64,000 nucleotides of DNA, taken from the sequence record PZ386967.1; one strand, 5' to 3'. Numbering within the stretch: the stretch's first letter is position 1; each line of letters starts with the position of its first letter. Source of the DNA: a phage. This document shows, one piece after another, positions 4,384 to 64,000 of the stretch. Both the position numbers and the translations under genes were made by a program. The notes under the pieces were generated by a model. It was given only the letters and a program-made list of their open reading frames with translations, was not told where the DNA came from and made no database searches.

Positions 4384-4407
4384 TTCAATGTAAGATCGGG
4401 GTATAAT
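4384..4407 (+). promoter_or_regulatory. TTCAAT-box / TATAAT promoter upstream of gp32, with -10 inside hairpin CGGGGTA-TAAT-TACCCCG
   Basis: TTCAAT at 4384-4389, TATAAT at 4402-4407; 7-bp GC stem flanks the -10; gp32 ATG at 4482. Confidence 0.4.
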
Positions 4408-4481
4408 TACCCCGCTTTGTAGCAAACTGAAATACATGTAACAGAATAGCCCTGAGGGGCGGAAACAGAGGAAATTAAGAA

Positions 4482-9390: not shown

Positions 9391-9424
9391 GGGGCTGCTA
9401 TAATAGCAGCTCCTTTTGTTTATT
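9391..9424 (+). terminator. terminator hairpin that also carries a TATAAT in its loop (terminator/promoter unit)
   Basis: GGGGCTGCTAT-AAT-AGCAGCTCC followed by TTTTGTTTATT; TTCAAA box 15 nt upstream of the TATAAT. Confidence 0.5.
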
Positions 9425-9434
9425 GGAGCAGTTT

Positions 9435-10094
9435 ATGTCCTACTCCCTGAAGGGGTTGATGAAGCGCCCCGTCCACACATTCTTTAAACCACCCGTCGTA
9501 AAGGGGATCTACCCAGCACGAGGGCAAATCTACTACGTCAAAGGCTCCAATGGTAGCGGTAAATCCACTGTGCCGTCTCAGCTGGCGGAGAGGGATCCTC
9601 AGGCGTATGTCGTGACCCATAATGGCAAGGTCATGCTGACTGTCTGTCCTTCGTTCAACGTGGTCTGTATCGGTAAATATGACAAGTCGAAGTCCAAGGG
9701 GGTTGATTCCCTGAAGGACACTGAGCAGATGTTGTTCGCGTTGTCTATTGCTGACCAACCAGAATACTTGAAATATGATGTGATTTTCGAAGGTATCATT
9801 CCATCCACATTATTGAGTTCTTGGATCCCCCGTCTGACACGCCCACCACGTGAATTGGTTGTGCTCTTTATGGACACTCCTCTTGAAACGTGTATCACCC
9901 GCGTTAAATCACGTAACGGCGGTGTGGACTTCAATGAAAGTCTGGTGGTCGAGAAGTGGGAGAGAGTTCATGACCATCGTCAACGACATAAAGACTTGTT
10001 CCCTACGGTAGCTGCGGGTATGATGAAGTCTCACGGCCTAACGGTAGACCAGGCTGTGATGGCATTCCTCTGTCGTGATTTTGGGAGTATCTGA
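9435..10094 (+). CDS. P-loop kinase, polynucleotide-kinase (Pnk) kinase-domain-like, no phosphatase domain
   Basis: Walker A GSNGSGKST in a context resembling T4 Pnk N-terminus (remembered GCPGSGKST); ORF track start 9423 is TTG, ATG at 9435 has GGAG SD; stop overlaps next gene start. Confidence 0.5.
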   Translation: MSYSLKGLMKRPVHTFFKPPVVKGIYPARGQIYYVKGSNGSGKSTVPSQLAERDPQAYVVTHNGKVMLTVCPSFNVVCIGKYDKSKSKGVDSLKDTEQMLFALSIADQPEYLKYDVIFEGIIPSTLLSSWIPRLTRPPRELVVLFMDTPLETCITRVKSRNGGVDFNESLVVEKWERVHDHRQRHKDLFPTVAAGMMKSHGLTVDQAVMAFLCRDFGSI

Positions 10095-11140
10095 TGGAAA
10101 TCAAAGCAATTAACAACAATGACATGCTGAAGCAGGCTGTCTTGGCTATCCGTGAATTCGGGATCGAATCTGATCCTGGTAATGCTGAAATCAATACTGA
10201 TAGCACCCGCTTCCTTGATGGTGTGACTATCACTGTTTCCGATATTCGTGACCGCTGGCTCTCCGTTGAAGGTCGCAACTCATCGGCTATCGCTGCCATC
10301 GGCGAGACCTTCTGGGTGTTGTCAGGTCGCAACGACATAAAGTTCCTGTCACGCGTATTGCCTCGCGCTGCTAACTTTTCGGATGATGGGGTAACATGGC
10401 GAGCTGCTTATGGTCCGCGTCTGTACGCCCATGGCCAGCTGGATAGCGTTATCAACCGCCTGCGCAAGAACCCAAACACTCGTCAGGCGTACCTCACCAT
10501 CTATGACCCGGCTCTAGATTCGGATGCTGGTCTGGCGAAGTTCAGCGAGAGCGGCGAAGCAAAGACTAAAGACATGGTGTGTAACCTGGCTCTGTTGTTC
10601 GCCATCGTTGAAGGTCGTCTGAACCTGACGGTCATCAATCGCTCACAGGATGTTCTGTGGGGGATGAGTTCAATCAACTTCATTGAGTTCTCTATTCTTC
10701 AGGAAGTGATTGCTCGGGTGTTAGATGTTGATGTCGGTCAGTACAAGCTCTTCTCCAACAATCTTCATTACTACAACAATGAAGTCAGCCAGAAGCAGCT
10801 GGGAAAGATCACGAAGGACACCAAAGTAGAAGCTGGGTTCATCAACACCATGATTCACTTCACGAACGTGACCAACCAGAACCATATCCGCAATCTGTTC
10901 ACTGGTGTGCTTCATCACTGTGATATCGGTAGCCCGTGGGAAACTGTGGTTGCTCACCTGAAGGAATACGATGCGGATCGCGGCCTGATTGTACAGATGG
11001 CGTACTGTCTGCACTGCAAACTGAACGAAAAGCTCATTAACCTGGACCTGATTCAGGATCATGGCTTGAACACCGCGCTCACCCATTCTCCGGTTGACCG
11101 CAAGATCGTTGATCCTAAGTTCCTGGAAGGTGTAGTATGA
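10094..11140 (+). CDS. thymidylate-synthase-fold pyrimidine hydroxymethylase / TS homolog with about 100-aa C-terminal extension
   Basis: ETFWVLSGRNDIKFL, WRAAYGPRLY, RQAYLTIYDP, catalytic Cys in MVCNLALLF, NRSQDVLWGMSSINF align to conserved ThyA blocks; Asn retained at the base-specificity position (uracil-type). Confidence 0.6.
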   Translation: MEIKAINNNDMLKQAVLAIREFGIESDPGNAEINTDSTRFLDGVTITVSDIRDRWLSVEGRNSSAIAAIGETFWVLSGRNDIKFLSRVLPRAANFSDDGVTWRAAYGPRLYAHGQLDSVINRLRKNPNTRQAYLTIYDPALDSDAGLAKFSESGEAKTKDMVCNLALLFAIVEGRLNLTVINRSQDVLWGMSSINFIEFSILQEVIARVLDVDVGQYKLFSNNLHYYNNEVSQKQLGKITKDTKVEAGFINTMIHFTNVTNQNHIRNLFTGVLHHCDIGSPWETVVAHLKEYDADRGLIVQMAYCLHCKLNEKLINLDLIQDHGLNTALTHSPVDRKIVDPKFLEGVV

Positions 11141-15611: not shown

Positions 15612-15639
15612 TTCAATAAAGCGGGTCATAGGGTATAAT
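15612..15639 (+). promoter_or_regulatory. TTCAAT-box / TATAAT promoter with -10 in hairpin loop (TCATAG-GGTATAATT-CTATGA)
   Basis: TTCAAT 15612-15617, 16-nt spacer, TATAAT 15634-15639; upstream of 15672. Confidence 0.45.
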
Positions 15640-15671
15640 TCTATGATCTGAATGTAAACCAGGAGCACATC

Positions 15672-19810: not shown

Positions 19811-19832
19811 TTGAAGTCCCCAGGGTTATAAT
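19811..19832 (+). promoter_or_regulatory. TTGAAG-box / TATAAT promoter inside an 11-bp hairpin that also overlaps the ligase RBS
   Basis: CCAGGGTTATA...TATAACCCTGG stem (19820-19852); TATAAT at 19827-19832; GGAG of the SD lies in the 3' stem. Confidence 0.4.
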
Positions 19833-19861
19833 AGCAGCACATATAACCCTGGAGACACCGC

Positions 19862-29655: not shown

Positions 29656-29724
29656 TTCCGGTTCCTCTTAATAAACGAAGGGAAGTATATACTCCCCCTT
29701 CTTCAATAACCGCTGAATCTTTAT

Positions 29725-31633: not shown

Positions 31634-32262
31634 CCCACAACCTCCAGACCCATCAGATCTTCCATGGTCTTCTGAATACGCAGCCAGTCAAGCGCAGCGT
31701 CATAACGAGGGTCATGATAGACCATACCTTCCAGTTCCCACGCCTTGATACCAGCATACCGATCCTGCTGTCCAACACCCTTCAGCCAACTCACGATGTC
31801 GAAGGTGTGGTGGTAGTCCCAAGGCTCGTTGGAGTCCTGCTTACATGTCACCTCAATGATGTGCTGAGCCTTGCGCAGATCAAACAGGTTGCGATCACAC
31901 CAGTCGACCGAGCGCGGGTCTACCCCAAGACGATGACAACCCTTGCGGATTTCATCGGCCAATTGGAAGATAGAGATGTCATCTTCCTTGGGGTACAGAC
32001 TGACTGCGCGAGCCGCATCACACGGGTTACGTTTACCCGCCCCCAACCACCATTCTACCGTCCCAGCGTCCTTCACGCGACCAAGTTCGAGCTGCTCTTT
32101 GACATTCAGCTTAATGAACGTCGTGCGCTCCTCAACCAGCTGCTGAAGAGTATAACGCTTGGTCAGGTCGGCGATGGTGTGCGCCCAAGACAGCATGACT
32201 GCATCATCCCAGCGCCCCAAGGTTTCACTGTCGGCCACAGCCAAAAAATTTGATTTATACAT
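31630..32262 (-). CDS. dexA: DEDD-type 3'-5' exonuclease (T4 DexA-like)
   Basis: Exo I motif AVADSETLG, GTVEWW block and C-terminal HDPRYDAALDWL resemble remembered DexA blocks. Confidence 0.5.
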   Translation of the reverse strand: MYKSNFLAVADSETLGRWDDAVMLSWAHTIADLTKRYTLQQLVEERTTFIKLNVKEQLELGRVKDAGTVEWWLGAGKRNPCDAARAVSLYPKEDDISIFQLADEIRKGCHRLGVDPRSVDWCDRNLFDLRKAQHIIEVTCKQDSNEPWDYHHTFDIVSWLKGVGQQDRYAGIKAWELEGMVYHDPRYDAALDWLRIQKTMEDLMGLEVVG

Positions 32263-32506
32263 GTTTATTCTCCCAACACTTTATTTTGGCTTTTACTGTA
32301 TAATAATTTTCATCAATGAACTTTTTGTTGACGCGCTTAATTTCTATCTCTGGGCAAAGTAACCCTATAGTTTCCCTCAAAATCTGGCTCACCCTGGCCT
32401 GTGAAATACAATAAATTTCTGATACTTCTTTCGAACTAGTTCCAGACATGACAAGTTTTAGAATATTGACCTTTTTATAAAATTCTTGATCAAACGCACA
32501 TATCAT
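32255..32506 (-). CDS. small HTH DNA-binding protein (sigma region-4 / Fis-like)
   Basis: SKEVSEIYCISQARVSQILRE helix-turn-helix. Confidence 0.4.
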   Translation of the reverse strand: MICAFDQEFYKKVNILKLVMSGTSSKEVSEIYCISQARVSQILRETIGLLCPEIEIKRVNKKFIDENYYTVKAKIKCWENKHV

Positions 32507-47421: not shown

Positions 47422-47480
47422 CAGCGTTTGCTCCGGCGTTTGTTCTTCATCTTTCTTGGCTTGTCTGTCATGTTCCTGTC

Positions 47481-47526
47481 CACGAAAAAGGGATAGAGCA
47501 ATAATACCCTATCCCCTTTTATTGAA
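47481..47526 (-). terminator. terminator hairpin fused to a TTCAAT-box / TATTAT promoter (terminator-promoter unit)
   Basis: GGGATAG...CTATCCC stem followed (minus) by TTTTTCG; minus TTCAAT at 47526-47521 and TATTAT within the loop. Confidence 0.45.
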
Positions 47527-50167: not shown

Positions 50168-50338
50168 AGATTACTTTTTCTTCAGCTCTTCCAGCTTGGC
50201 TTCAATTTGGTCCAGAATCTCTTTACCTTTCTGGACGATGGCTTCACCATCTTGCGCGTGTTTACGGAAGACCAAAGCACCAGCGATGAAGCCGACAACC
50301 GCGCCAGGAAGCGCATAAACCAGCAGATCTTGTAACAT
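50168..50338 (-). CDS. small membrane peptide (56 aa, hypothetical), not in ORF track
   Basis: Hand-translated minus ORF MLQDLLVYALPGAVVGFIAGALVFRKH...EELKKK with strong SD (GAGGATATTATC) and terminator downstream; coordinates approximate. Confidence 0.35.
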
Positions 50339-50374: not shown

Positions 50375-51610
50375 TCAGCGTTTCAAGAGTGCCATGAGGT
50401 TGACGCTGCTGGACTTCGGCTTGTCCTCAACCTTGCGCACAGGCATCTTCAGGTTCGTACATACCTCGGATGGCTCCCAGCGCGTACCCTTTTGCAGGTG
50501 CCAGATATGCAGAGGAACACCAGTCTCAAAGAACACAGGCATCTTCCACTTCTGGACGCCTGGAACGTGCCCTGCAGGAGCCTTTTCGCACAACAGGGTA
50601 TCTGGCAGCCAGAGCGAACGGGCTTCCCAGAGCGCTGCGCAGGAGTATTCAGGCCAGACGCGTTCCATGTAGTCTATTTCATCCCAGGTACGCTCTGCGT
50701 CCCACCCGATGTAACGGGTATTCTTCAGTCGGAAGAATTTCTTCAGCCAACAAGCACCGGAGGTTTCAAAGTTCAGACGGTTGATGAACGTCAGGTGTCC
50801 GAACTCAGCCACACAATCCTGGAACGCCTGCTCAAGGTCGGCCTCAAGGATGTCACACTCTTCATCCGTGATAGGGCAACCGTTGATCTTTTTCTTCCCG
50901 TGTTTAGTCACCCAATCGTCACGGTTGGACAAGAACGCCGCGCCATTACGGTTGGACTCGCTTCCATCACGATCACGCAGCATGAAGCCAGGGACGTCAA
51001 TGGTGTATTCGTTCCCGAAGACCATGTTCAGGGCTTCCAGGAAGTTCCAGGCGCTCAGGCGACCGAAGTATTTCCAGGACATCGCCGTGTCCCACAGCTG
51101 GGTGAATTGTTCTGTCTTATCGATGCACACCAACATCCCACGGAAAGCGTCATATTGAGTACGGCCAGCCAGCCAGTCAATATAGGACTGAACACACGGA
51201 ATCATCTTGGACTTGCGGTAGCGGCAATCGGTATCGAATCGCATGCGATCAAAGTTCAGATTATACCAATCAGAGAAGCGCTGCATCTCTTCCTTAGACT
51301 GAGGCGGCACAGGGAACTCACTGTAGATCGTCCACGGCCCGACGGCGTTATAGCAACAACCCCACAGGAATGCCATCCAGATCTTGCGCTCGACTTTCTG
51401 TTCGAGGCTGATGCCTTCAGTGACTTCGATCGCATAGTCCATCAGACGCATCTGCTGGTTGTGCTCTTCTGTGTAGGACAGCGCCTCCACCCAAGCCTTG
51501 AGCAGGTACATGCGATTCTCAGGCTTGCGATAATCAACAGCCAGGTCAATCGGGTACTTCCATTCAGCCGGAGGTGTATAGCCCGTCGGCATTTTAGATA
51601 AATGATGCAT
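50375..51610 (-). CDS. hypothetical 411-aa protein (candidate DNA-modification enzyme by context)
   Basis: GAGGAAG SD; Trp/Cys-rich soluble protein; no motif recognised. Sits in a block with P-loop NTPase and HAD phosphatase next to the DNA polymerase. Confidence 0.4.
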   Translation of the reverse strand: MHHLSKMPTGYTPPAEWKYPIDLAVDYRKPENRMYLLKAWVEALSYTEEHNQQMRLMDYAIEVTEGISLEQKVERKIWMAFLWGCCYNAVGPWTIYSEFPVPPQSKEEMQRFSDWYNLNFDRMRFDTDCRYRKSKMIPCVQSYIDWLAGRTQYDAFRGMLVCIDKTEQFTQLWDTAMSWKYFGRLSAWNFLEALNMVFGNEYTIDVPGFMLRDRDGSESNRNGAAFLSNRDDWVTKHGKKKINGCPITDEECDILEADLEQAFQDCVAEFGHLTFINRLNFETSGACWLKKFFRLKNTRYIGWDAERTWDEIDYMERVWPEYSCAALWEARSLWLPDTLLCEKAPAGHVPGVQKWKMPVFFETGVPLHIWHLQKGTRWEPSEVCTNLKMPVRKVEDKPKSSSVNLMALLKR

Positions 51611-51971: not shown

Positions 51972-52171
51972 TTTGGTTCCTTGAATATTTTATAGCCAGC
52001 AGCGCCGATAGCCATAATCGCGCCGATACAATACAACATGGTCAGGTTCATCTTCTCTGAGGTTGTTAAGTCCAGAGGGGTGAAATGATAGGCTAGGGCA
52101 GTACACATTGAAACGGCTGCCATAACCAGACCAATGAACAACAGATAATTAGACAACCGTTTCATGATCAC
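51968..52171 (-). CDS. small membrane protein (hypothetical)
   Basis: 67 aa, two hydrophobic helices. Confidence 0.3.
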   Translation of the reverse strand: MIMKRLSNYLLFIGLVMAAVSMCTALAYHFTPLDLTTSEKMNLTMLYCIGAIMAIGAAGYKIFKEPK

Positions 52172-53085
52172 CCCTTCTTCATCAGGTCAAGGAGAGAGCG
52201 CGACGCTGCCTTCGTTGCTTCTGGCTGGGCGCTCGCCTTGGTTTTAGTTTTGGATGCCTTCTGCGGCTTCTCAGGGACTCTGTGCGCCAAAGGATCCTGG
52301 CCGCCGATTTCACGAGTCATCGGATTGGTTTCACAGTAGGCGTAGAAGTCTTTGGTGTCCATGTTAACTTCACGCAGTTCGGACCGTATCTGATGACAAA
52401 TCGCATTACCCACAACCCACAGCGGGGCGTCGTATGGGAGCACCGCCAACTCGGACTGCTGTTTGGTCGTGAACTCCTGGGTGTTGGTCTCTGGCGCTTT
52501 ATACAGGATATCCTGTCCGCTGTAATCATCAACAGCCACAGTGAAGCCCAGCGCCAGCATTTCGGCCTTCGACTTCTCAAACTCCTTGGAGTAAGATTCG
52601 TTGCGTGACCAGCCGGAGTTCCCTGCTTCTTTACCAGATCGACCACGGATACGAGCATCGTACTGATAGCGGTCGGGGTACGCAAAGTACAGCAGCGCCA
52701 ATGATTCAATCGGATAGTTCTTGAACATCCATTCAGGACGCCATTTGTCCGACAGCATGAGGGGTTCACCCTCACACACCAGAGTGTATCCCTGAACCAA
52801 CCAGCACTTGATTAGATCACGAGCAATATCGCCTGAGCCTGTAGCAGCATGGATTGCATCCATTGAAGTCCAGGAAGCCAGGCCGGATTTGTTAGACACG
52901 GTGTACTGTCCAACGAAGATTAACTTCAGCTCTCCGAACTTCAGGCCAAACGGGCGAGTCTTGTCACCAACGGTGTAGGTCAGTTCGGTAGGCTCCAGCT
53001 TCGTACGGAGCCATTCGATGAACTGGACCACTCTCGTACCCTTGCCCGTGGCCGAGGTGCCTTTCACTACGATAATTTTTGCCAT
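52168..53085 (-). CDS. P-loop NTPase / kinase (putative)
   Basis: Walker A VVKGTSATGKGT at N-terminus; 305 aa. Confidence 0.45.
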   Translation of the reverse strand: MAKIIVVKGTSATGKGTRVVQFIEWLRTKLEPTELTYTVGDKTRPFGLKFGELKLIFVGQYTVSNKSGLASWTSMDAIHAATGSGDIARDLIKCWLVQGYTLVCEGEPLMLSDKWRPEWMFKNYPIESLALLYFAYPDRYQYDARIRGRSGKEAGNSGWSRNESYSKEFEKSKAEMLALGFTVAVDDYSGQDILYKAPETNTQEFTTKQQSELAVLPYDAPLWVVGNAICHQIRSELREVNMDTKDFYAYCETNPMTREIGGQDPLAHRVPEKPQKASKTKTKASAQPEATKAASRSLLDLMKKG

Positions 53086-54526: not shown

Positions 54527-54553
54527 CTGTTTGTCAAAGGGTTAACAGGGGGA

Positions 54554-54579
54554 ATTATATCCCCCTTTGGTTTATTGAA
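54554..54579 (-). promoter_or_regulatory. TTCAAT-box / TATAAT promoter with -10 in loop of GGGGGA/TCCCCC hairpin
   Basis: Minus TTCAAT 54579-54574, 14-nt spacer, TATAAT 54559-54554; immediately downstream of DNA polymerase stop. Confidence 0.4.
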
Positions 54580-58486: not shown

Positions 58487-58581
58487 AATATTTATTGAAT
58501 AAAGTTTACTTCTTCAATAACTGGCGTATACTTCTAATTGTAGTACGAACAAACAACAATCTGAAGAGAAGGAAATACATC

Positions 58582-59139
58582 ATGGCAATCGAAATTATCG
58601 CTCAATCCAAATCTGGTAAAACTGTAATGTACGGCACTGAAGAAGGCCGCGCAATCACCACTCTGGGCACAATTGACGGTTCCAACCCAGTGAAAGGCGG
58701 TCGCTACCTGGTTGAATACGGTTCACACCTGCTGATGGTAAGCAAAGTCGATGGTCGTGAAATCATGATTCCCCGCAAAGAGTACTTCGACTCGCGCATT
58801 GAAGCCATGAACTTCTTCCTTTTCCAGGAACGTCACGAACTGTTCGTTGAAGCGAAAGACGCAGGCCTGGACGATGCGACTGCCGAACTGATCGCTGAAG
58901 GTAAAATGACTCTTGAGGCTGCTCTGGGTGACATGGATTGCGATGCTGAAGCCCATTACATCGAATATTCCGCTTATCAGAATGAATGCGAAGACGATCC
59001 TGAAGATGACGGCTTCGACCCTGACCTTCACGGTGGCGAGGATGACAACACTCCTTCCCTGGAAGTGATCATGGCAGGCGGTCAGGCCGCTTGGGAGTGG
59101 CAGAACGAAAAGAACGCCTGGCTGGATTCCCACCTTTAA
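58582..59139 (+). CDS. hypothetical acidic protein
   Basis: ORF track 58495..59139; ATG at 58582 follows AGAAGGAAATACATC; highly acidic C-terminus. Confidence 0.45.
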   Translation: MAIEIIAQSKSGKTVMYGTEEGRAITTLGTIDGSNPVKGGRYLVEYGSHLLMVSKVDGREIMIPRKEYFDSRIEAMNFFLFQERHELFVEAKDAGLDDATAELIAEGKMTLEAALGDMDCDAEAHYIEYSAYQNECEDDPEDDGFDPDLHGGEDDNTPSLEVIMAGGQAAWEWQNEKNAWLDSHL

Positions 59140-59156
59140 TGTGAAGAAATAAAGAA

Positions 59157-59182
59157 AGGGGCTTAACGCCCCTTTTCTTATT
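59157..59182. terminator. bidirectional terminator between convergent genes
   Basis: AGGGGC-TTAA-GCCCCT with T-runs on both strands. Confidence 0.6.
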
Positions 59183-59636
59183 CTTCCCAGAAGTCTTCGT
59201 CGTCCCCGACAGCAGCCAGTTCCGTGTCCAGTTCTTCATCGGTAAACGGTGGCAGCACCCCGTTCTGAATCAGATAATCCATCTCATCATCTTCCAGCTG
59301 CAGGTCGGTGGCAATATACAGCGCTCCGCTGCCCTCTTCGTCCGTCTCGATACTGTACGAAGTGTATGGCACCCCATTCACTGTAATGATGATAGACGTT
59401 GGATCCTTGGGATCTACGTGCGCCTCGAACGGCACACCATCAATCGGTGCATCTTCTAGGAAGGTAGCAAGTGCTACGGCGGCGCGGACAACATCAGTGC
59501 CTTCAACGCCCGCATAGATCTCTTCCGCGCCTGTCTCTTCACGATCAAACAGCTCAATCGTGATACCGTCTTGAACACCAGTCCATACAGGGATGTCATT
59601 GGTGTATTCTGATTCAAACAATTTGGAGGTTGGCAT
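59178..59636 (-). CDS. hypothetical acidic protein
   Basis: 152-aa ORF, Asp/Glu-rich. Confidence 0.4.
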   Translation of the reverse strand: MPTSKLFESEYTNDIPVWTGVQDGITIELFDREETGAEEIYAGVEGTDVVRAAVALATFLEDAPIDGVPFEAHVDPKDPTSIIITVNGVPYTSYSIETDEEGSGALYIATDLQLEDDEMDYLIQNGVLPPFTDEELDTELAAVGDDEDFWEE

Positions 59637-59780
59637 GTTGGGTTCCTCAGTGGGTTAGCCATATGGGGTATTTAGGCTTCCCGCTTGGCGAGGTCTGGTT
59701 TGTACAGGACGCCTCTCGGAAATATTGGAGGAAGGTTTTCATAGATACCCCACACGGATTGTATGGGGTATTCAGGAGGG

Positions 59781-60974
59781 TCAGGAAGGGGTGAATTCGT
59801 TTACAGGAACTGTTTCAGGGATAGCCAGCTCAGGGCATGCTGCCTTCATCGGCTCGATGTATGGCTTGCTACCCACAATCCAGAACAGAGTGTTCTCATT
59901 GAGCAACTCGGGCTTGTGTTGCTGAACCCAGGTCATGACCTTGCCTTCATAGCGAGGATGCAACTCAATATCACCCCACTGATATTCCATCAGGTCATTA
60001 TAACGAACCCAATTAGTGGTATGAAGATCCCAATGGTGTACCTCAAAGCGAGGAAGCACGACCTCTGGCTCTTCCTTCTGCCTGATACCACTTAGGAGGC
60101 CAGCCAGCGAAACGCTCTTAGAGGCATGCTGAAGCTCCTTCTTGCCGTGTACATAGTCTGGGTTGTCGTGATAGCGACGGGTAAAGTCGACAATGTGCGG
60201 TAGATTGGCATGTTTGCCGATGATGCGCAGACGACTCTCGATAAAGTCCAGGCGGTTCGGACCGATGCCAATCAGATACACACGCTTCAGATTAGGCTTC
60301 GGATGCATTGCCAGCCCGGTCAGGATGCTTGTGCAAGAGTTGCACGATCCGGCTGGGATGATCAGGTCAGTAATGTGATCAGGAATGTTGGCAACCTGCT
60401 CGCCACCCAACATATGGAACCCAGCAATGCGCTCAGGGGAGTGGGCTGTATGGTCGAGGGTGATACCATACTCCAGATAATACGCCTTTGGATTCTGTTG
60501 TTCGATCAACTTCTTACAGCGCGGCTGGATGGTGCTGTTGTAACCCGAGCCGACGAAGTTGAACTCACTACCAAACCAGGCTGACATTGCCACCATTTCA
60601 TGGTTCATACAGGTGGTGGGTTTGGTCGCGCCGAGCACAGTAGTTGTCTTGCCGCCGAAGTGCCGAGAGACTGCCGTCGCCATAGGGGACTGCGGACTAC
60701 CAACGACAGTACCATGGATGATGTCAGGGGAGCCTCCGGTCATGAGGTGCTCAACCATCAACCAGATGGCCTGGCGGAGTTTGCTGCCGTTGATGCCCTG
60801 CTGGCCATTTGCATAATTGGACAGCGGCGCAAAATAATCTTCACGCTTGAACCAGACCTGCTGGTTGGTTTCGGGGTTGACGACAAGTTCGCACGGGGTG
60901 TGCTTGTAGAGATAATCTTCCCAATGGACCAGGTTGCGGTCGAGGGAAAGGATATCGAAGATGGTCTTGTTCAT
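59781..60974 (-). CDS. possible PLP-dependent (fold-type II-like) enzyme; low-confidence
   Basis: ORF track start 60995; ATG at 60974 has AGGAGAAAA SD. NGSKLRQA resembles the S-x-K-x-R lysine motif of Trp-synthase-beta-like enzymes, but the match is weak. Confidence 0.3.
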   Translation of the reverse strand: MNKTIFDILSLDRNLVHWEDYLYKHTPCELVVNPETNQQVWFKREDYFAPLSNYANGQQGINGSKLRQAIWLMVEHLMTGGSPDIIHGTVVGSPQSPMATAVSRHFGGKTTTVLGATKPTTCMNHEMVAMSAWFGSEFNFVGSGYNSTIQPRCKKLIEQQNPKAYYLEYGITLDHTAHSPERIAGFHMLGGEQVANIPDHITDLIIPAGSCNSCTSILTGLAMHPKPNLKRVYLIGIGPNRLDFIESRLRIIGKHANLPHIVDFTRRYHDNPDYVHGKKELQHASKSVSLAGLLSGIRQKEEPEVVLPRFEVHHWDLHTTNWVRYNDLMEYQWGDIELHPRYEGKVMTWVQQHKPELLNENTLFWIVGSKPYIEPMKAACPELAIPETVPVNEFTPS

Positions 60975-61044
60975 TCTATTTTCTCCTGTAGACATTGGCT
61001 TATCATAGTGTATCTACAGGAGTATAGAAAAGGAGAATCTCGGA

Positions 61045-61689
61045 TTACTTCTTGAACAGACGAAGGAACTTCATCATGTTATCCATGAAAGTTGGCTTCT
61101 TGGCCTTTTGTTTTACTGGAGCACCCTGATCATTCAGAACACGACTGGCCGGAGGAGTTGGATTCAAAGATTTAATTGCCTGATTCAAATCGGAATTATC
61201 CACGACACCCACTTCTTCACCGACCGTAACGCATGGTTTGATTAGAACGGATTTCTTAGACTGCTCATACTGATGAGCGATATCCAGATATTTCTTGCGC
61301 TCTGCGTAGAAATCAACAGACTTGACCTTGCGACGACGCCAATTGGCGCTTTCTTCGCCATAGAAATCATATCCGTTTCTGATCAGCCAGTGTACGGCTT
61401 GTTCAAAAGAACCGAAGACCATAAGTGGAGCACCCTGGCCTTTCTCAGATTGTTCCAGGCTACCATAACCCATCAATACAACCTGGCCTTTGATACTCAA
61501 ATCAAACGTCATACCAAGGTTCGGGATGTTTTTATCGCGGCGGAAGAACCCGCCATCACGGTAGACGTAAACAGGCGACAGGAACTCATTCAGAGTACGC
61601 TTGACACCCTTGTATCGGAAGAGTCTGACAATTGGAGGGGTGTCACGGGAAATCACTTCGTTCAATTCCCAGATAGAAACATTACGCAT
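61045..61689 (-). CDS. hypothetical protein
   Basis: 214-aa ORF; last protein gene before the tRNA region. Confidence 0.4.
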   Translation of the reverse strand: MRNVSIWELNEVISRDTPPIVRLFRYKGVKRTLNEFLSPVYVYRDGGFFRRDKNIPNLGMTFDLSIKGQVVLMGYGSLEQSEKGQGAPLMVFGSFEQAVHWLIRNGYDFYGEESANWRRRKVKSVDFYAERKKYLDIAHQYEQSKKSVLIKPCVTVGEEVGVVDNSDLNQAIKSLNPTPPASRVLNDQGAPVKQKAKKPTFMDNMMKFLRLFKK

Positions 61690-61805
61690 CGGTGTATCCT
61701 CAAATCTATGACAGGGGGTTAACGGTTAAATTTTAAACCCCCTTTGTATCATTGAACAAACTATGATAAAGGAGGACATGCTTGGGTCGATAAGAAGATA
61801 ATAAG

Positions 61806-61842
61806 ACAGGGATAAAAAGAAAGCCGGATAGGATATCCGGCT
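61806..61842 (-). terminator. rho-independent terminator closing the minus-strand tRNA cluster
   Basis: AGCCGGATA-GGA-TATCCGGCT followed on minus strand by TTCTTTTTATCC. Confidence 0.55.
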
Positions 61843-62058
61843 ATACCACATCGATGGGTTGGGTTGAAAGACTACACGCTTACACTGGTACTACCCTATG
61901 GGAGAGCGCGTCAGGAGTCGAACCTGAAGTCGTCGACGTAGAGAAAGCTATTTGCATTTCACTATCCTCGCCGCGATTTTCTTAACTTCCTAAACACCCC
62001 GATTACGAGAGAGTCGACATGCACATCTTCTAACTCTTCAGGAAGTCACGCCCGTAAT

Positions 62059-62147
62059 TTGGCGGAAGGTGAAGGATTCGAACCTTCGGGGGCTAAAAGC
62101 CCCACTCGATTAGCAGTCGAGTCCCTTAAACCTCTCGGGCAACCTTC
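62059..62147 (-). tRNA. tRNA-Ser (anticodon GCU), class II with long variable arm
   Basis: Hand-folded: acceptor GGAAGGT/ACCTTCC, anticodon stem CTCGA/TCGAG with loop CTGCTAA, variable hairpin GGGGC-TTTTA-GCCCC, T-arm GAAGG-TTCGAAT-CCTTC, discriminator G, encoded CCA. Confidence 0.8.
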
Positions 62148-62368
62148 CAATTTGGACGGGCTTCACACCCGATTGAGCATTTGATCTGCTGTAGCCCAAC
62201 TCCCCGCGCTTCTCAGCGCCGATTGGTTAACTGGCGACCAGTGCCTTCTGGTTCGATCTCCTGGAACTTTACAGGCTTTGCGCCCGACCATTTCTGGAAG
62301 TTGGGGCATCGTTTCCGATGTGGAGTCACCCCATTTTATACACAGCTGGCTGCAACGCTTACTGTGTT

Positions 62369-62452
62369 TGGTGTGAGTGGATGGATTCGAACCACCGCGC
62401 TGTTACGGGGAGATTTACAGTCTCCTGCATTCGACCGCTCTGCCACACTCAC
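62369..62452 (-). tRNA. tRNA-Tyr (anticodon GUA)
   Basis: Acceptor GTGAGTG/CACTCAC, anticodon stem GGAGA/TCTCC loop CTGTAAA, long variable arm, T-loop TTCGAAT, discriminator A, CCA. Confidence 0.75.
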
Positions 62453-62709
62453 ATTTGGTCTGCCGCTGCGTGCTGGGCCACGCTCGAGGACATCGGCCAT
62501 CCTTCCTCAGCTAATCCACGCAGCGGTAGATTTGTATCAGAGTGTCCGGTGTAGCAACCCGTGAGGTGCGCACTACTGTAGCCTCTACACTCTGAATTTG
62601 GTGGGCGTTACTATCGTCGTCTTCGGATTCCGTTCGGCTATTGGACAGAGGCTTGGAGCTTGTCGGTCGCGTACTTTATGCCTATTCACTTTCGTTCACA
62701 CCCATTGTC

Positions 62710-62785
62710 TGGCGACGATGGCAGGACTTGAACCTGCGACATACGGTTTAACAGACCGCCGTTCTACCGACTGAACTACATCGTC
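62710..62785 (-). tRNA. tRNA-Asn (anticodon GUU)
   Basis: Acceptor GACGATG/CATCGTC, D-arm GTTC-AGTCGGTA-GAAC, anticodon loop CTGTTAA, T-arm GCAGG-TTCAAGT-CCTGC, discriminator G, CCA. Confidence 0.85.
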
Positions 62786-62794
62786 TTGCAAATC

Positions 62795-62819
62795 ACTATA
62801 CCATATAAAGTTTATTGAA
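62795..62819 (-). promoter_or_regulatory. TTCAAT-box / TATAGT promoter positioned to start transcription just upstream of tRNA-Asn
   Basis: Minus TTCAAT 62819-62814, 13-nt spacer, TATAGT 62800-62795, 9 nt before the mature tRNA 5' end. Confidence 0.45.
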
Positions 62820-62956
62820 CAAACATTTATTTTACAACAAACTGTATTGGCGGGGTCTGAGGCTTTTCACCTCACCTGCTGGGTTTGGCCGCCCAGCCGT
62901 TCTCTATGAGGATTCACTGTCCGGACAGCTATCCATTAAACTATCGCCCCTCAATA

Positions 62957-63033
62957 TGGTGATCCTGATTGGGTTTGAACCAATGACCAATGAATTATGA
63001 GTTCACTGCTCTAACCGACTGAGCTACAGGACC
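62957..63033 (-). tRNA. tRNA with CAU anticodon (elongator Met or Ile2-lysidine type)
   Basis: Acceptor GGTCCTG/CAGGATC (one G-U), D-arm GCTC-AGTCGGTTA-GAGC, anticodon loop CTCATAA, T-arm ATTGG-TTCAAAC-CCAAT, discriminator A, CCA; no initiator-specific features. Confidence 0.75.
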
Positions 63034-64000
63034 AAATTATTGTGTGACCAACCAAGGACTGTCAACCCTTTATCCCGTTTGTGCATGATCAGTTCATACA
63101 GGCCTCTTTGTGCTGCCTCACGGCATGCGCTTCTGTTGGTCATTGGCTTACACTGTGGCCTCACAACAGGCGTTTATTTTTCCAGGGCTTTCCACTTACA
63201 AGTCTTAACCAGACCGGGATACGGGCTTGTAAGATCGGGTTGGACACAACTTTGAGGACACTGACGACGTATACGAGTCACCCATAACAGATATTCGGAT
63301 GCCAGTGTCCTCAAAGTTGCAACCAATGTCGCAACTCGCAGCTTCCATACAGAAGCAACTTGTCCTCTAACGCTCGGACCAAACGAGGCTGGCTGGTTGA
63401 TTCAGAGCCGCTGGTTGCTCCAGCAAGCATGGGTTGATAGCCCGGCAACATAGAATCACCCAAAGATGAAGAACATTCATGACTCACATCACACCACGAA
63501 TGGCCTGAAAGAGAATCGAACTCTTTAAATGCTCTTCATTTTGTGAACTTGAGAATACTACGCCTGTCTCGGGTTTCCCCTTAGTTCGGCCTCCCAGTCC
63601 TCGCCGCGCCGGGTAGCTAACCCTGATGGCTCGTCTGCTACTGAGTTCTTCTTGGTGCCCACCAGTGTCCGGAATGTGTAGACATCGCAATCTGCAAGGC
63701 ATGGTCTATTTCACCCAATGCTCTCTCAAGTTCACAAATCGAAGTGCCCTGACTCAACAGTATGGCCCAATATGCTGTTATCGTCCACCGGATTGGCCGC
63801 CCAATTTGTAGATCAACCTTTGGGTTTAAGATAAATTGTCAAGGCACTTCGATTTGTGTGCCCTTCACCTGCCAGGGATCAGGGCTGATGGCAAGACTTC
63901 GCTCACATCTTTCAAGATACTCGTGAGAATATCCTCAAAGATGTGGAGCCGTTTTAGGGAGTCGAACCCAAATGCTCGGCCAGCGCTGACCTTACATCCC

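Follow-up and report, generated by a model that had tools for sequence, protein, structure and literature searches.

A conserved Shine-Dalgarno hairpin precedes the predicted O-serinyl-thymidine DNA decarboxylase gene of an Ackermannviridae phage

Hairpins that sequester the ribosome binding site and carry an internal late promoter precede genes e, soc, 49 and I-TevI of phage T4. For the enzyme described here, the characterised counterpart is gp226 of phage ViI. Purified gp226 is a PLP-dependent decarboxylase that converts O-serinyl-thymidine (O-SerT) in DNA to 5-NeOmdU; it has the PLP spectrum at 410-425 nm, and it turns O-SerT DNA into a 301-u nucleoside with the loss of one labelled carbon (PMC8989533). 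Lysate mixtures from which gp226 is left out yield a +44 u intermediate (PMC8989533; PMC5889632). K92 of gp226 has been named as the likely aldimine lysine, an assignment that is a prediction even in ViI (PMC8989533). The evidence for 5-NeOmdU and for O-SerT decarboxylation comes from ViI gp226 together with the DNA of ViI and CBA120 (Lee et al. 2018, 2021; PMC8989533; PMC5889632), and an inhibitory effect of 5-NeOmdU on cleavage by Type II restriction enzymes has been reported (PMC6449724).

The window, by which we mean the whole stretch of 64,000 nt that was analysed, is from an Ackermannviridae (ViI-like) phage; its DNA is 97% identical to that of Escherichia phage vB_EcoM-ZQ1, and 267 Ackermannviridae matches were recovered. 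The gene of interest (Table 1) encodes a 397-aa product with the N-terminus MNKTIFDIL, and the NGSKLRQA motif that an earlier sequence-only reading had picked out in this product is there, at residues 62-69. An alternative in-frame ATG at 60995 would give a 404-aa product. This ATG is out of frame in relatives because the AAAA run found there is one A shorter in all of them. Relatives also retain AGGAG-N7/8-ATGAA(C/G) before the gene, and the PHROG 3650 alignment spans residues 1-397 end to end (E 2e-238); the true start is therefore 60974. Both the 404-aa ORF and the small upstream ORFs in the hairpin loop were rejected, since the one-base length difference in relatives shifts the frame.

Table 1. 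Positions of the gene, its leader elements and the associated genes in the window
Feature	Position	Strand	Basis
Decarboxylase gene, ViI gp226 ortholog	59781..60974	-	Orthology, PHROG 3650, PLP fold type II; function from PMC8989533
K65 codon AAA, predicted Schiff-base (internal aldimine) lysine in INGSKLRQA	60780..60782	-	Invariance, alignments
HPRYEGK motif, H339-K345	59940..59960	-	Matches DPVYEGK (Y294/E295) of ACC deaminase
Conserved 70-nt leader cassette, upstream stop codon to ATG	60975..61044	-	Conservation
Main stem, 5' arm CUCCUGUAGAUA (proximal anti-SD)	61011..61022	-	Folding
Main-stem 5'-arm segment CUCCUGUAGA		-	
Main stem, 3' arm UGUCUACAGGAG, contains SD AGGAG (60987-60983)	60983..60994	-	Folding
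16-nt loop CACUAUGAUAAGCCAA, -10-like TATGAT at 61007-61002	60995..61010	-	
Outer stem, 5' strand UUCUAU	61024..61029	-	6 bp with AUAGAA, 60979-60974
Distal anti-SD UUCUCCU in block GAGATTCTCCTT	61031..61037	-	Alignment; folds of L041-L043
Upstream gene, 214 aa, Vi01_181 homolog, no Pfam family	61045..61689	-	ORF and homology
Remnant of deleted gene (ViI Vi01_183, ART-PolyVal-like)	59637..59780	-	Sequence comparison
Downstream gene, 152 aa, Vi01_184 homolog	59178..59636	-	ORF and homology
5-hmdU DNA kinase 2, ViI gp243 ortholog	52168..53085	-	PF18747, E 3e-158; 84.5% identity to Vi01_196
Amino acid:DNA transferase, ViI gp247 (serine:DNA transferase) ortholog	50375..51610	-	PF18724, E 7e-60; 89.5% to Vi01_199
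Thymidylate-synthase-family protein, candidate dUMP hydroxymethylase supplying 5-hmdU	10094..11140	+	PF00303, E 1e-15

The protein agrees with ViI gp226 (YP_004327553, Vi01_182) at 360 of 395 residues (91%), and the two genes occupy reciprocal genome positions in synteny. The sequence-only reading had guessed a fold-type-II PLP enzyme with its Schiff-base lysine in NGSKLRQA, and had proposed a PLP-fold profile search, a structure prediction and a survey of lysine conservation as checks; each of these bears the guess out. K65, the lysine of the motif, corresponds to the published candidate K92 of ViI gp226, the offset coming from a 27-aa N-terminal insert in ViI. It is invariant in 55 homologs, with identity down to 42%, and in the family-profile search it aligns with the lysine of GGNK(T/L)RK in ACC deaminase (1rqx/1f2d). 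Y342, E343 and K345 are likewise invariant columns among the homologs; the match of YEGK to residues 290-300 of 1rqx is a local alignment that is not significant alone. The AlphaFold (AF2) model of the 397-aa protein is confident (pLDDT 91.2, pTM 0.90) and shows the architecture of fold-type-II PLP enzymes; Foldseek matched it best to 4d97, a D-cysteine desulfhydrase (E 1e-11), and to the ACC deaminase 1tzk. Pfam PF00291 (PALP) is matched over residues 26-249 at 29.4 bits (E 6.6e-7), under the gathering cut-off of 35 bits, and several closer relatives carry a precomputed PF00291 match. By its modelled fold the protein is thus a divergent PALP member, and not one by the curated cut-off. Searching NCBIfam with the 397-aa protein gave no match, nor did a single-sequence search of PDB sequences, ACC deaminase being reached by the family profile only.

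We are highly confident of the identity and the chemistry of the enzyme, a fold-type-II, ACC-deaminase-like PLP protein predicted to decarboxylate O-serinyl-thymidine in DNA. The activity has been demonstrated in the 91%-identical ViI gp226, and the present copy would share it; the proposal in the sequence-only reading of a decarboxylation or transamination step on a base-linked amino acid agrees with that published reaction. The enzyme is already known through its characterised ortholog, given the gp226 orthology, the conserved lysine, the fold and the partner genes. As judged from the alignments, the catalytic lysine and the Tyr-Glu pair of ACC deaminase and D-cysteine desulfhydrase are present and family-invariant; the protein is not filed under either function because the ortholog's published activity is decarboxylation on DNA. 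A rival reading takes it for an enzyme of metabolism, a fold-type-II threonine dehydratase, ACC deaminase or D-cysteine desulfhydrase whose substrates are free amino acids. GenBank titles ('threonine dehydratase' and 'threonine ammonia lyase' among them) and the nearest solved structures speak for this reading, which is scarcely credible beside an identity to such enzymes of 13-17%, a sub-threshold Pfam score, a purified ortholog that decarboxylates O-SerT in DNA, and the kinase and transferase genes in the same genome.

[quoted passage not shown] The gene had been described as lying near modification genes; such genes do exist, but at a distance of 7-9 kb and with a DNA polymerase gene in between. 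After replication, the kinase would phosphorylate 5-hmdU in DNA, and the transferase would then join serine via its hydroxyl to the modified DNA, so making the decarboxylase substrate. The serine on the DNA would keep its alpha-amine free; with this amine, PLP on K65 would form a Schiff base, and removal of CO2 would leave an aminoethoxy group. In the pathway by which ViI-like (Ackermannviridae) phages make 5-NeOmdU (5-(2-aminoethoxy)methyl-deoxyuridine), the decarboxylase would in this way catalyse the final step. The thymidylate-synthase-family protein is a candidate for the dUMP hydroxymethylase, a role suggested by earlier work (PMC5889632). The presence of decarboxylase, kinase and transferase together leads us to predict that the DNA of this phage carries 5-NeOmdU. 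In GenBank the gene is mostly a 'hypothetical protein', or is wrongly named 'threonine dehydratase', 'DNA repair protein' and similar; its annotation should become O-serinyl-thymidine decarboxylase of the 5-NeOmdU pathway. The current understanding of that pathway is unaltered by our findings.

Downstream of the gene, the remnant of the Vi01_183 homolog retains a hairpin (ATACCCCA...TGGGGTAT), an ATG and the 3' end. A tblastn search of the window with Vi01_183, whose ViI protein belongs to Pfam PF18760, gave no match. CTAAATACCCC precedes the 152-aa downstream gene, and a canonical terminator-like site (59175-59155) follows it; our scan placed another terminator-like site at 61842-61822.

The sequence-only reading had also described a hairpin overlapping the ribosome binding site of the gene, and had asked whether the RNA would fold so. 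The arms that it named were located at 61019-61012 (CCTGTAGA) and 60992-60985 (TCTACAGG), and the hairpin is real and longer than described. The main stem has 12 uninterrupted pairs closed by a 16-nt loop and is extended by an outer stem of 6 bp, so that the whole AGGAG, and not part of it, is paired together with the A of AUG; the predicted pairing probability of the Shine-Dalgarno (SD) sequence is 1.00. In a 91-nt context the fold has -21 kcal/mol (z = -3.55, with 1 of 200 shuffles equally stable), and the 118-nt leader has -25.9 kcal/mol (z = -4.0, 0 of 200 shuffles). The leader taken from the putative TSS has -5.8 kcal/mol (z = +0.6), no better than shuffles. Predicted SD pairing alone is not rare, since by folding alone 16% of the window's genes show a pairing probability above 0.9. 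The uninterrupted SD-covering helix is nevertheless the longest among 73 window genes, at 12 bp against 9 and 8 bp for the next two. Longer folds add an outer helix between CCGAGAUUCU and codons 3-8, which we judged not to be conserved because relatives have N-terminal insertions there.

In 19 loci, 65-67 of the 70 nt of the leader are identical (93-96%), whereas third-codon positions are 58-75% identical; the synonymous sites of the gene are ~60% identical, against 90-100% for the leader. A 76-nt leader query had a match in each of 267 out of 267 phage records, at 90-100% identity, and in a 16.6-kb alignment with ViI the leader ranks with the best-conserved 60-nt windows. Additional leader variants were taken from IMG/VR and a phage collection. 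Because close relatives are nearly invariant here, true compensatory changes are very few. At two positions a stem substitution leaves a wobble pair in the RNA (L015, C to U; L013, A to G), and the tenth of the 12 pairs is broken by a common U to C change, present in 5 loci. Across the alignment 81.7% of cells are paired, against 35-52% with the partners slid, a count flattered by the derivation of the structure from the present sequence. In the loci L019-L021, whose proteins are 70-71% identical to the present decarboxylase, the AGGAG is paired by a different arm, CUCCUUG(G)GU with ACUCAAGGAG, at a predicted probability of 0.94-1.0, and that arm belongs to GAGATTCTCCTT, a block with family-wide conservation.

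The hairpin is, as far as sequence comparison goes, restricted to enterobacterial Ackermannviridae: ~45 distant homolog loci (37-56% identity), outside genomes of Ackermannviridae size, have no conserved SD-sequestering hairpin. Within its range, the locus L013 has the hairpin in front of an inserted 535-aa endonuclease-like ORF and not directly before the decarboxylase gene. The latter starts there behind an ordinary AAGGA and is closely coupled to the stop codon that ends the inserted ORF, so that the hairpin is not indispensable for it. Rfam cmscan of 59000-64000, at E up to 1, gave no family for the leader, and tRNAs and chance matches elsewhere. A search of metagenomes with the loop pattern CTATGATAWGCCAATG gave, among the matches listed, chance ones only, none with AGGAG downstream. 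Few non-coding stretches near the gene are conserved as strongly as the leader.

A role for the hairpin in translational control or processing, as the sequence-only reading had suggested, is plausible and fits the comparative data. Concealment of the ribosome binding site by the hairpin is probable, and control of this type is ordinary. The leader most likely gates translation, and it may do so by transcript origin, as in T4 e and soc. Transcripts reading through from the upstream gene would fold the leader into the 12+6-bp hairpin, burying the SD and the first base of the AUG, and initiation would be blocked or throttled, as the folding and comparative data suggest. A promoter with the TATGAT of the loop would give transcripts from ~60995 that are free of the 5' arm and have an open SD. 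In that case its own promoter would be the sole source of the enzyme; as a route of release we hold this scheme, that of T4 gene e, soc and I-TevI, to be the most likely one. Taken as a whole, a decarboxylase behind a translation-gating leader that is relieved by an internal promoter is the best explanation we can offer, and we regard it as likely. Of its parts, the limitation of translation initiation by the hairpin is fairly probable, and relief by an internal promoter is a hypothesis that we hold tentatively.

A weak -35-like TTTTCT (61031-61026) matches at 3 of 6 positions, lies 18 nt from TATGAT and overlaps the 5' strand of the outer stem. Our scan flagged no promoter at the hairpin, and it reported no terminator between the 214-aa upstream gene and the hairpin, nor at the hairpin. 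In a search for T4-type late promoters, TATAAATA and CTAAATA each turned up twice in the window and not in the leader. A literature search found no usable report on Ackermannviridae promoters, transcriptomes, translation or the CTAAATA motif. In the alignment, the TTTTCT-18-TATGAT of the window's group faces the TTGGGT-17-TACAAT of L019-L021, with a shift of 3 nt between the -10-like hexamers of these clades. Between L019 and L020 both hexamer blocks are conserved and the spacer differs at most positions.

Also in favour of an internal promoter, some 10 other intergenic regions of the window have a -10-like hexamer in a stem-loop ~30-40 nt before a start codon, and in front of the DNA ligase gene the 3' arm of such a promoter-like stem-loop also runs into GGAG. 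In ViI late genes, a hairpin running up to the start codon comes after CTAAATA. Against it, the leader has no G-run/C-run stem such as the other promoter stem-loops of the window have. On a broader proposal, the leader would be a cis-regulatory cassette of enterobacterial Ackermannviridae, gating by transcript origin or processing, and one case of a genome-wide design. Sigma-70-like -10 elements, and in ViI late-type CTAAATA elements as well, may lie inside hairpins whose 3' arm is the ribosome binding site, and the cassette border may be an insertion hot spot for the homing-endonuclease-like ORF and for variable N-terminal peptides. We consider the proposal in this general form rather doubtful.

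Alternatively, the hairpin may throttle translation or serve as a processing site, the internal promoter being absent and expression of the gene polycistronic only. The SD would then be chronically masked, giving little enzyme, or freed by a phage factor or by RNase III-type cleavage of the interrupted helix of ~18 bp. The weak candidate -35 and the stretch free of any terminator or scored promoter between the upstream gene and the hairpin speak for such an arrangement. With its internal bulge, the 12+6-bp helix nears the length of an RNase III substrate, and a protein-binding site would fit the loop, whose conservation equals that of the stem. Still, a throttle leaves unexplained the hexamer blocks that L019 and L020 conserve around a diverged spacer, and the promoter-in-stem-loop layout is common in the present genome, so we think this alternative unlikely.

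A further possibility is that the palindrome acts as DNA, either as an operator for a dimeric regulator or as a PeSL-like recombination or shuffling cassette at an insertion hot spot, with RNA pairing as a by-product. The sequence itself is conserved, not pairing alone, and the cassette borders are sharp (CCGAGATTCTCC ... ATGAA) whatever the upstream gene, as L023 illustrates. An ORF is inserted right after the cassette in L013, and the decarboxylase N-terminus carries variable inserts after MN, from 0 to ~60 aa, among relatives; T4-type PeSL cassettes (promoter plus stem-loop) mediate such indels (PMC2839356, PMC4122927). Several observations nevertheless make a DNA-level role improbable. The two G-U wobble substitutions keep RNA pairing and not DNA pairing, and in L019-L021 it is the SD-pairing arm that has changed. 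PeSLs are repeated, whereas the leader is single in the window: searches for further copies (28-mers with up to 3 mismatches; blastn-short with 81 nt) gave 9-13-nt chance matches only, and so we do not regard it as a repeated element. GGGG-TATAAT-CCCC elements occur in other intergenic regions of the window, and the stem here, CUCCUGUAGAUA, has no such G-run and C-run.

That the hairpin serves the upstream gene as an intrinsic terminator or attenuator is very improbable: it does start ~23 nt past the upstream stop codon, and PeSL stem-loops have been shown to terminate transcription (PMC2839356, PMC4122927), yet AAAAUAGAAUG follows the stem, the combination of a GC-rich stem and a U-run behind it is absent, with no U-run on either strand, the scan reported no terminator, and a 16-nt loop is long for one.

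Should the leader gate translation, it would offer a handle on when, or at what enzyme dosage, the last modification step takes place. It would also be a readily testable case, from beyond the T4 group, of the control by transcript origin that T4 shows.

Among described systems, ACC deaminase and D-cysteine desulfhydrase (1rqx, 1f2d, 4d8t, 1j0a) are the best profile and fold matches; their lysine aligns with K65, and Y294/E295 of ACC deaminase correspond to the YEGK motif. The present protein has ~60 extra residues by comparison, including a low-confidence loop at 281-289, and its reaction is decarboxylation on a DNA-linked substrate, whereas theirs are ring opening and beta-elimination on a free amino acid. 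The chemistry, decarboxylation of an amino acid on DNA thymine, is the same in gp52 of Pseudomonas phage M6 (YP_001294560), a PLP-dependent C-alpha-glycinyl-thymidine decarboxylase. gp52 and the present protein share the N-terminal KRED..APL...SK(I/L)R, with K36 of gp52 aligned to K65, in an alignment of ~22% identity over 177 columns (hhalign E 2e-4, probability 45%; 278 versus 397 aa). M6 gp52 differs in acting after a radical-SAM isomerase and in being encoded in a tight operon with no comparable leader.

For the leader, PeSLs (Arbiol et al. 2010; Comeau et al. 2014; PMC2839356, PMC4122927) offer the same order of stop codon, promoter-like boxes, stem-loop over the -10, SD and ATG, and they too show indels at the cassette border, as in the endonuclease insertion of L013 and the variable N-terminus. 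Unlike them, the leader is a single copy with neither a G-run/C-run stem nor a U-tract terminator, and its 3' arm is the SD itself. The T4 hairpins resemble it in that read-through transcripts pair the SD and the start, with a -10-like element between the arms. They differ in their promoter, which here would be the weak sigma-70-like TTTTCT-18-TATGAT and not a T4 late promoter, in the leader being known here from sequence, and in the gene, here one for a DNA-modification enzyme and not for a late function. As for ViI gp226, the present phage belongs to the Aglimvirinae and ViI to the Cvivirinae; the ViI protein has its 27-aa insert after Met-Asn, where the present one has none, and the ART-PolyVal-like gene that lies directly downstream in ViI is deleted here. 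The neighbourhood is otherwise the same (tRNA cluster, Vi01_181 homolog, decarboxylase, DNA polymerase, kinase 2, transferase), and both the lysine motif INGSKLRQA and the 70-nt hairpin leader are found in ViI as well.

The 70-nt leader ahead of the decarboxylase gene (60975-61044, minus strand) is a real, conserved element that probably sequesters a Shine-Dalgarno sequence; it is of a familiar kind and, as far as we could find, undescribed. The enzyme that follows it is already known. The region matches 267 phage genomes, Ackermannviridae-like throughout, the closest being Escherichia phage vB_EcoM-ZQ1 (Aglimvirinae; 97.3%), and the syntenic gene in Salmonella phage ViI (Vi01_182, orf00226) encodes gp226 (YP_004327553), identical to the window protein at 360 of 395 positions (91%). 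ViI gp226 is among five gene products that together suffice for rebuilding 5-(2-aminoethoxy)methyl-deoxyuridine (5-NeOmdU) from 5-hmdU DNA in lysates (PMC5889632). When gp226 is omitted a +44 u intermediate builds up; the purified protein is yellow, absorbs at 410-425 nm, and converts O-serinyl-thymidine in DNA to a 301-u nucleoside by decarboxylation, with one labelled carbon lost (PMC8989533). The decarboxylation of a base-linked amino acid proposed in the sequence-only reading has thus been shown for this ortholog, and the window protein is almost certainly a decarboxylase too. Because the ortholog is characterised biochemically, novelty of the enzyme is low, and we infer only that the window copy does the same job. 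Public records name the orthologs hypothetical protein, threonine dehydratase, threonine ammonia lyase, PLP-dependent lyase/thiolase, DNA repair protein or RecN, and none names the experimentally shown function. The modification genes proposed to be nearby do exist: the kinase and transferase genes lie 7-9 kb away, beyond the DNA polymerase gene, and a thymidylate-synthase-family protein, also listed as a pathway partner, is encoded in the window as well (see table).

The fold-type-II PLP assignment, proposed from a weak lysine-motif resemblance, is borne out by several searches and by the gp226 biochemistry. Pfam PALP matches residues 26-249 below threshold (E 6.6e-7; 29.4 bits against a 35-bit gathering score), and neither a single-sequence search against PDB sequences nor an NCBIfam search gave a match. 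A search of 5.8 billion proteins returned 430 relatives, 55 of which (identity down to 42%) made up the conservation alignment. Its profile matches ACC deaminase (1rqx, E 1e-5; 1f2d) and D-cysteine desulfhydrase, with K65 on the lysine of GGNK(T/L)RK and HPxYEGK on DPVYEGK. The AlphaFold2 model from this alignment (pLDDT 91.2, pTM 0.90, a single disordered loop at 281-289) most resembles D-cysteine desulfhydrase (Foldseek against PDB: 4d97, E 1e-11, TM 0.53/0.64) and ACC deaminase, followed by serine dehydratase, cysteine synthase and tryptophan synthase beta. K65, in INGSKLRQA (residues 61-69), is invariant in the 55 sequences, as are N62, G63, R67, the SPQ motif, G209/N212 (probably in the phosphate loop) and H339-P340-x-Y342-E343-x-K345. 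K92 of ViI gp226, named the likely internal-aldimine lysine (PMC8989533), is K65 here, because ViI carries a 27-aa insert after Met-Asn that the window protein lacks. M6 gp52, the other characterised DNA decarboxylase, aligns weakly to the family profile (hhalign E 2e-4), with its K36 exactly on K65.

The gene had been placed at 59781-60974 with a 397-aa product (minus strand, beginning MNKTIFDIL), correctly so. An alternative start, the ATG at 60995, lies in frame and would lengthen the protein by seven residues. It was rejected, because every relative is one A shorter in the AAAA run ahead of the start, putting that ATG out of frame, the PHROG 3650 alignment spans residues 1-397 end to end, and the vB_EcoM-ZQ1 annotation likewise has the 397-aa product. 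The pattern AGGAG-N7/8-ATGAA(C/G) is common to all relatives.

The hairpin noted over the AGGAG of this ribosome binding site is confirmed, and is larger than first described: stems of 12 and 6 bp are predicted to pair all of AGGAG (60987-60983) plus the A of AUG. Folding energies are -21 kcal/mol for the 91-nt context (z = -3.55) and -25.9 kcal/mol for the 118-nt leader (z = -4.0; 0/200 shuffles). Predicted pairing of the Shine-Dalgarno sequence is in itself unremarkable, since 16% of the 73 window genes with a recognisable one exceed a probability of 0.9. The decarboxylase gene nevertheless ranks first among the 73 for the longest uninterrupted helix covering it (12 bp, against 9 and 8 bp for the runners-up).

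Features of the leader, the modification pathway and related stem-loops
Feature	Position	Strand	Remark
Main stem	61022-61011 with 60994-60983	-	CUCCUGUAGAUA with UGUCUACAGGAG; 12 uninterrupted pairs, 16-nt loop
Outer stem	61029-61024 with 60979-60974	-	UUCUAU with AUAGAA; 6 bp
5-hmdU DNA kinase 2	52168-53085		PF18747; 84.5% identical to ViI gp243
Amino acid:DNA transferase	50375-51610		PF18724; 89.5% identical to serine:DNA transferase gp247
Thymidylate-synthase-family protein	10094-11140		listed as pathway partner
Window stem-loop examples	4395-4415, 9392-9412, 15625-15648, 19811-19845	+	
Window stem-loop examples	29670-29697, 47480-47515, 54535-54575, 61715-61750	-	
CTAAATACCCC sites in ViI	upstream of 3376, 14015, 16611, 19835	-	compare window 59675 (-)
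CTAAATACCCC site in ViI	upstream of 31853	+	

In 19 related IMG/VR loci and ViI, 65-67 of the 70 leader bases match those of the window, against mostly 58-65% at third-codon positions of the adjacent gene and 92-95% at first and second positions. Positions 60983-61042 are 98.3% identical to ViI within a 16.6-kb alignment at 76% overall, ranking in its top handful beside tRNA genes. A 76-nt query found the element in 267 of 267 records (90-100% identity), from phages of Salmonella, Escherichia, Shigella, Klebsiella, Dickeya, Serratia and Enterobacter. Stem variants are scarce: a C to U at pair 1 (L015) and an A to G at pair 8 (L013) leave U-G and G-U wobbles, and five loci have a U to C at pair 10, which leaves an A-C mismatch near the loop. 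In three more distant loci (L019-L021, the same as L041-L043; 70-71% protein identity) the leader is homologous but diverged. In L020 and L021 the Shine-Dalgarno context, now ACUCAAGGAG, pairs with a distal arm, CUCCUUGGGU, that is conserved family-wide (10 pairs including one G-U), instead of the proximal arm, and L019 uses yet another combination; the pairing probability is 0.94-1.0 in all three. In a 10-sequence alignment covariation is weak, and paired cells reach 81.7% against 35-52% with slid partners, the structure being derived from one of the ten. No conserved hairpin of this kind was found in about 45 homolog loci outside the group (37-56% identity), which sit tightly behind an upstream gene. 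We conclude from these comparisons that selection maintains a predicted Shine-Dalgarno-burying structure in enterobacterial Ackermannviridae. The loop and flanks are constrained at the sequence level too, so the role of the element goes beyond its helix.

The cassette has sharp borders, starting at CCGAGATTCTCC regardless of the upstream gene (e.g. in L023) and ending at ATGAA. One relative, L013 (IMGVR_UViG_2595698455), has a 535-aa endonuclease-like ORF (1389-2996) inserted precisely where the leader meets the decarboxylase gene: its start is the ATGAAC of the cassette, and the junction carries a duplication of AAATAGAATGAA (compare window 60972-60980). The ORF matches DUF7487 and, weakly, a restriction-endonuclease-like family (REase_MTES_1575), and ends in TAG 3 nt before the decarboxylase ATG, leaving that gene only AAGGA and close coupling to the inserted stop codon. 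The hairpin therefore belongs to whichever ORF follows the cassette, and in L013 would govern the inserted one. In a Dickeya phage record, the stretch that matches the element carries the annotation "putative homing endonuclease F-LimX". The decarboxylase N-terminus is itself hypervariable: Met-Asn/Lys and the conserved K(T/S)IF are separated by inserts of unrelated residues whose length differs between phages, 0 in the window (60966-60974) and 14, 23, 27, about 32, about 46 or about 60 at the equivalent position in L002-L024, and database relatives are as long as 496-529 aa. Both the insertion and the variable N-terminus fit a recombination-prone border, and a DNA-level recombination cassette is an alternative reading of the leader.

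In ViI the decarboxylase gene is directly followed by Vi01_183 (149 aa; 31814-32337 in its locus). This gene is deleted in the window, where 59637-59780 (-) retains its upstream hairpin, ATACCCCA...TGGGGTAT, an ATG with a few codons and the 3' end, and its CTAAATA box reads CTGAATA. The protein at this position is annotated "N-acetyltransferase" in Shigella phage Gloob; the ViI protein instead matches Pfam ART-PolyVal (ADP-ribosyltransferase in polyvalent proteins; E 9e-11). Four tRNA genes cluster upstream of the operon (62063-63033, minus strand; Rfam tRNA, 56-76 bits), and plus-strand ORFs predicted there are artefacts. Two 60-nt blocks are 100% identical to ViI amid 76% overall: 58506-58565, which looks like a promoter (TTTACT-16-TATACT) for the gene at 58582 (+) downstream of it, and 50171-50230, in the gap beside the transferase gene and probably inside a small conserved ORF (ViI Vi01_200) that gene calling had overlooked.

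The translational control proposed in the sequence-only reading is plausible and agrees with the comparative results, and on balance we favor a hairpin that limits translation initiation. Terminator-like sites bound the three-gene block (61842-61822 and 59175-59155). A promoter/terminator scan found no terminator between the upstream gene (61689-61045) and the hairpin, so read-through transcripts would include the whole hairpin and yield little decarboxylase. Relief might come from an internal promoter, a possibility we hold somewhat short of even. TATGAT (61007-61002) lies in the hairpin loop with TTTTCT 18 nt upstream; L019-L021 have TTGGGT-17-TACAAT at the aligned positions, and between L019 and L020 both hexamer blocks are conserved and the spacer differs at most positions, a promoter-like footprint. 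Such a transcript would start about 7 nt after TATGAT and lack the 5' arm; from there the leader folds no better than shuffles (-5.8 kcal/mol, z = +0.6). Against this promoter, the -35 is poor (3/6 positions), the built-in scan did not flag TTTTCT-18-TATGAT, the -10-like hexamers of the two clades are offset by 3 nt, and the leader, single-copy in the window, lacks the G/C-run stems of other elements there. The hairpin may alternatively act as a chronic throttle or a protein-binding operator, or be released through RNase III-type cleavage. We found no transcript mapping for Ackermannviridae in the literature.

An internal promoter also fits the genome's other stem-loops. Elsewhere in the window, about ten intergenic regions place a -10-like hexamer inside a stem-loop 30-40 nt ahead of a start codon (GGGGGA-TATAAT-TCCCCC before 54517) or, more loosely, a TATAAT-like hexamer in or atop one, often with a G-run and C-run, at 30-80 nt; the window holds 38 such hairpins, where shuffles give 24 +/- 5. 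At the DNA ligase gene (19862) an 11-bp stem, CCAGGGTTATA...TATAACCCTGG, has a 3' arm that continues into the Shine-Dalgarno GGAG. In ViI, CTAAATACCCC stands ahead of late-type genes (tail spikes, head closure and others), and its ATACCCC... forms the 5' arm of a hairpin ending at the start codon, with the 3' arm (GGGGTAT or GAGGGTA) directly before it. These layouts suggest a general design, a promoter nested in a hairpin that would mask the ribosome binding site, of which we found no description in the searchable literature.

T4 genes e, soc, 49 and I-TevI have the same arrangement of hairpin and internal start, and the likeness to the leader here would lie in a short transcript lacking the 5' arm of the Shine-Dalgarno hairpin. 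The window's cassettes of promoter and stem-loop also resemble the PeSLs of T4-type phages, in which the stem-loop mostly lies between the -35 and -10 boxes or overlaps the -10 (PMC2839356, PMC4122927).
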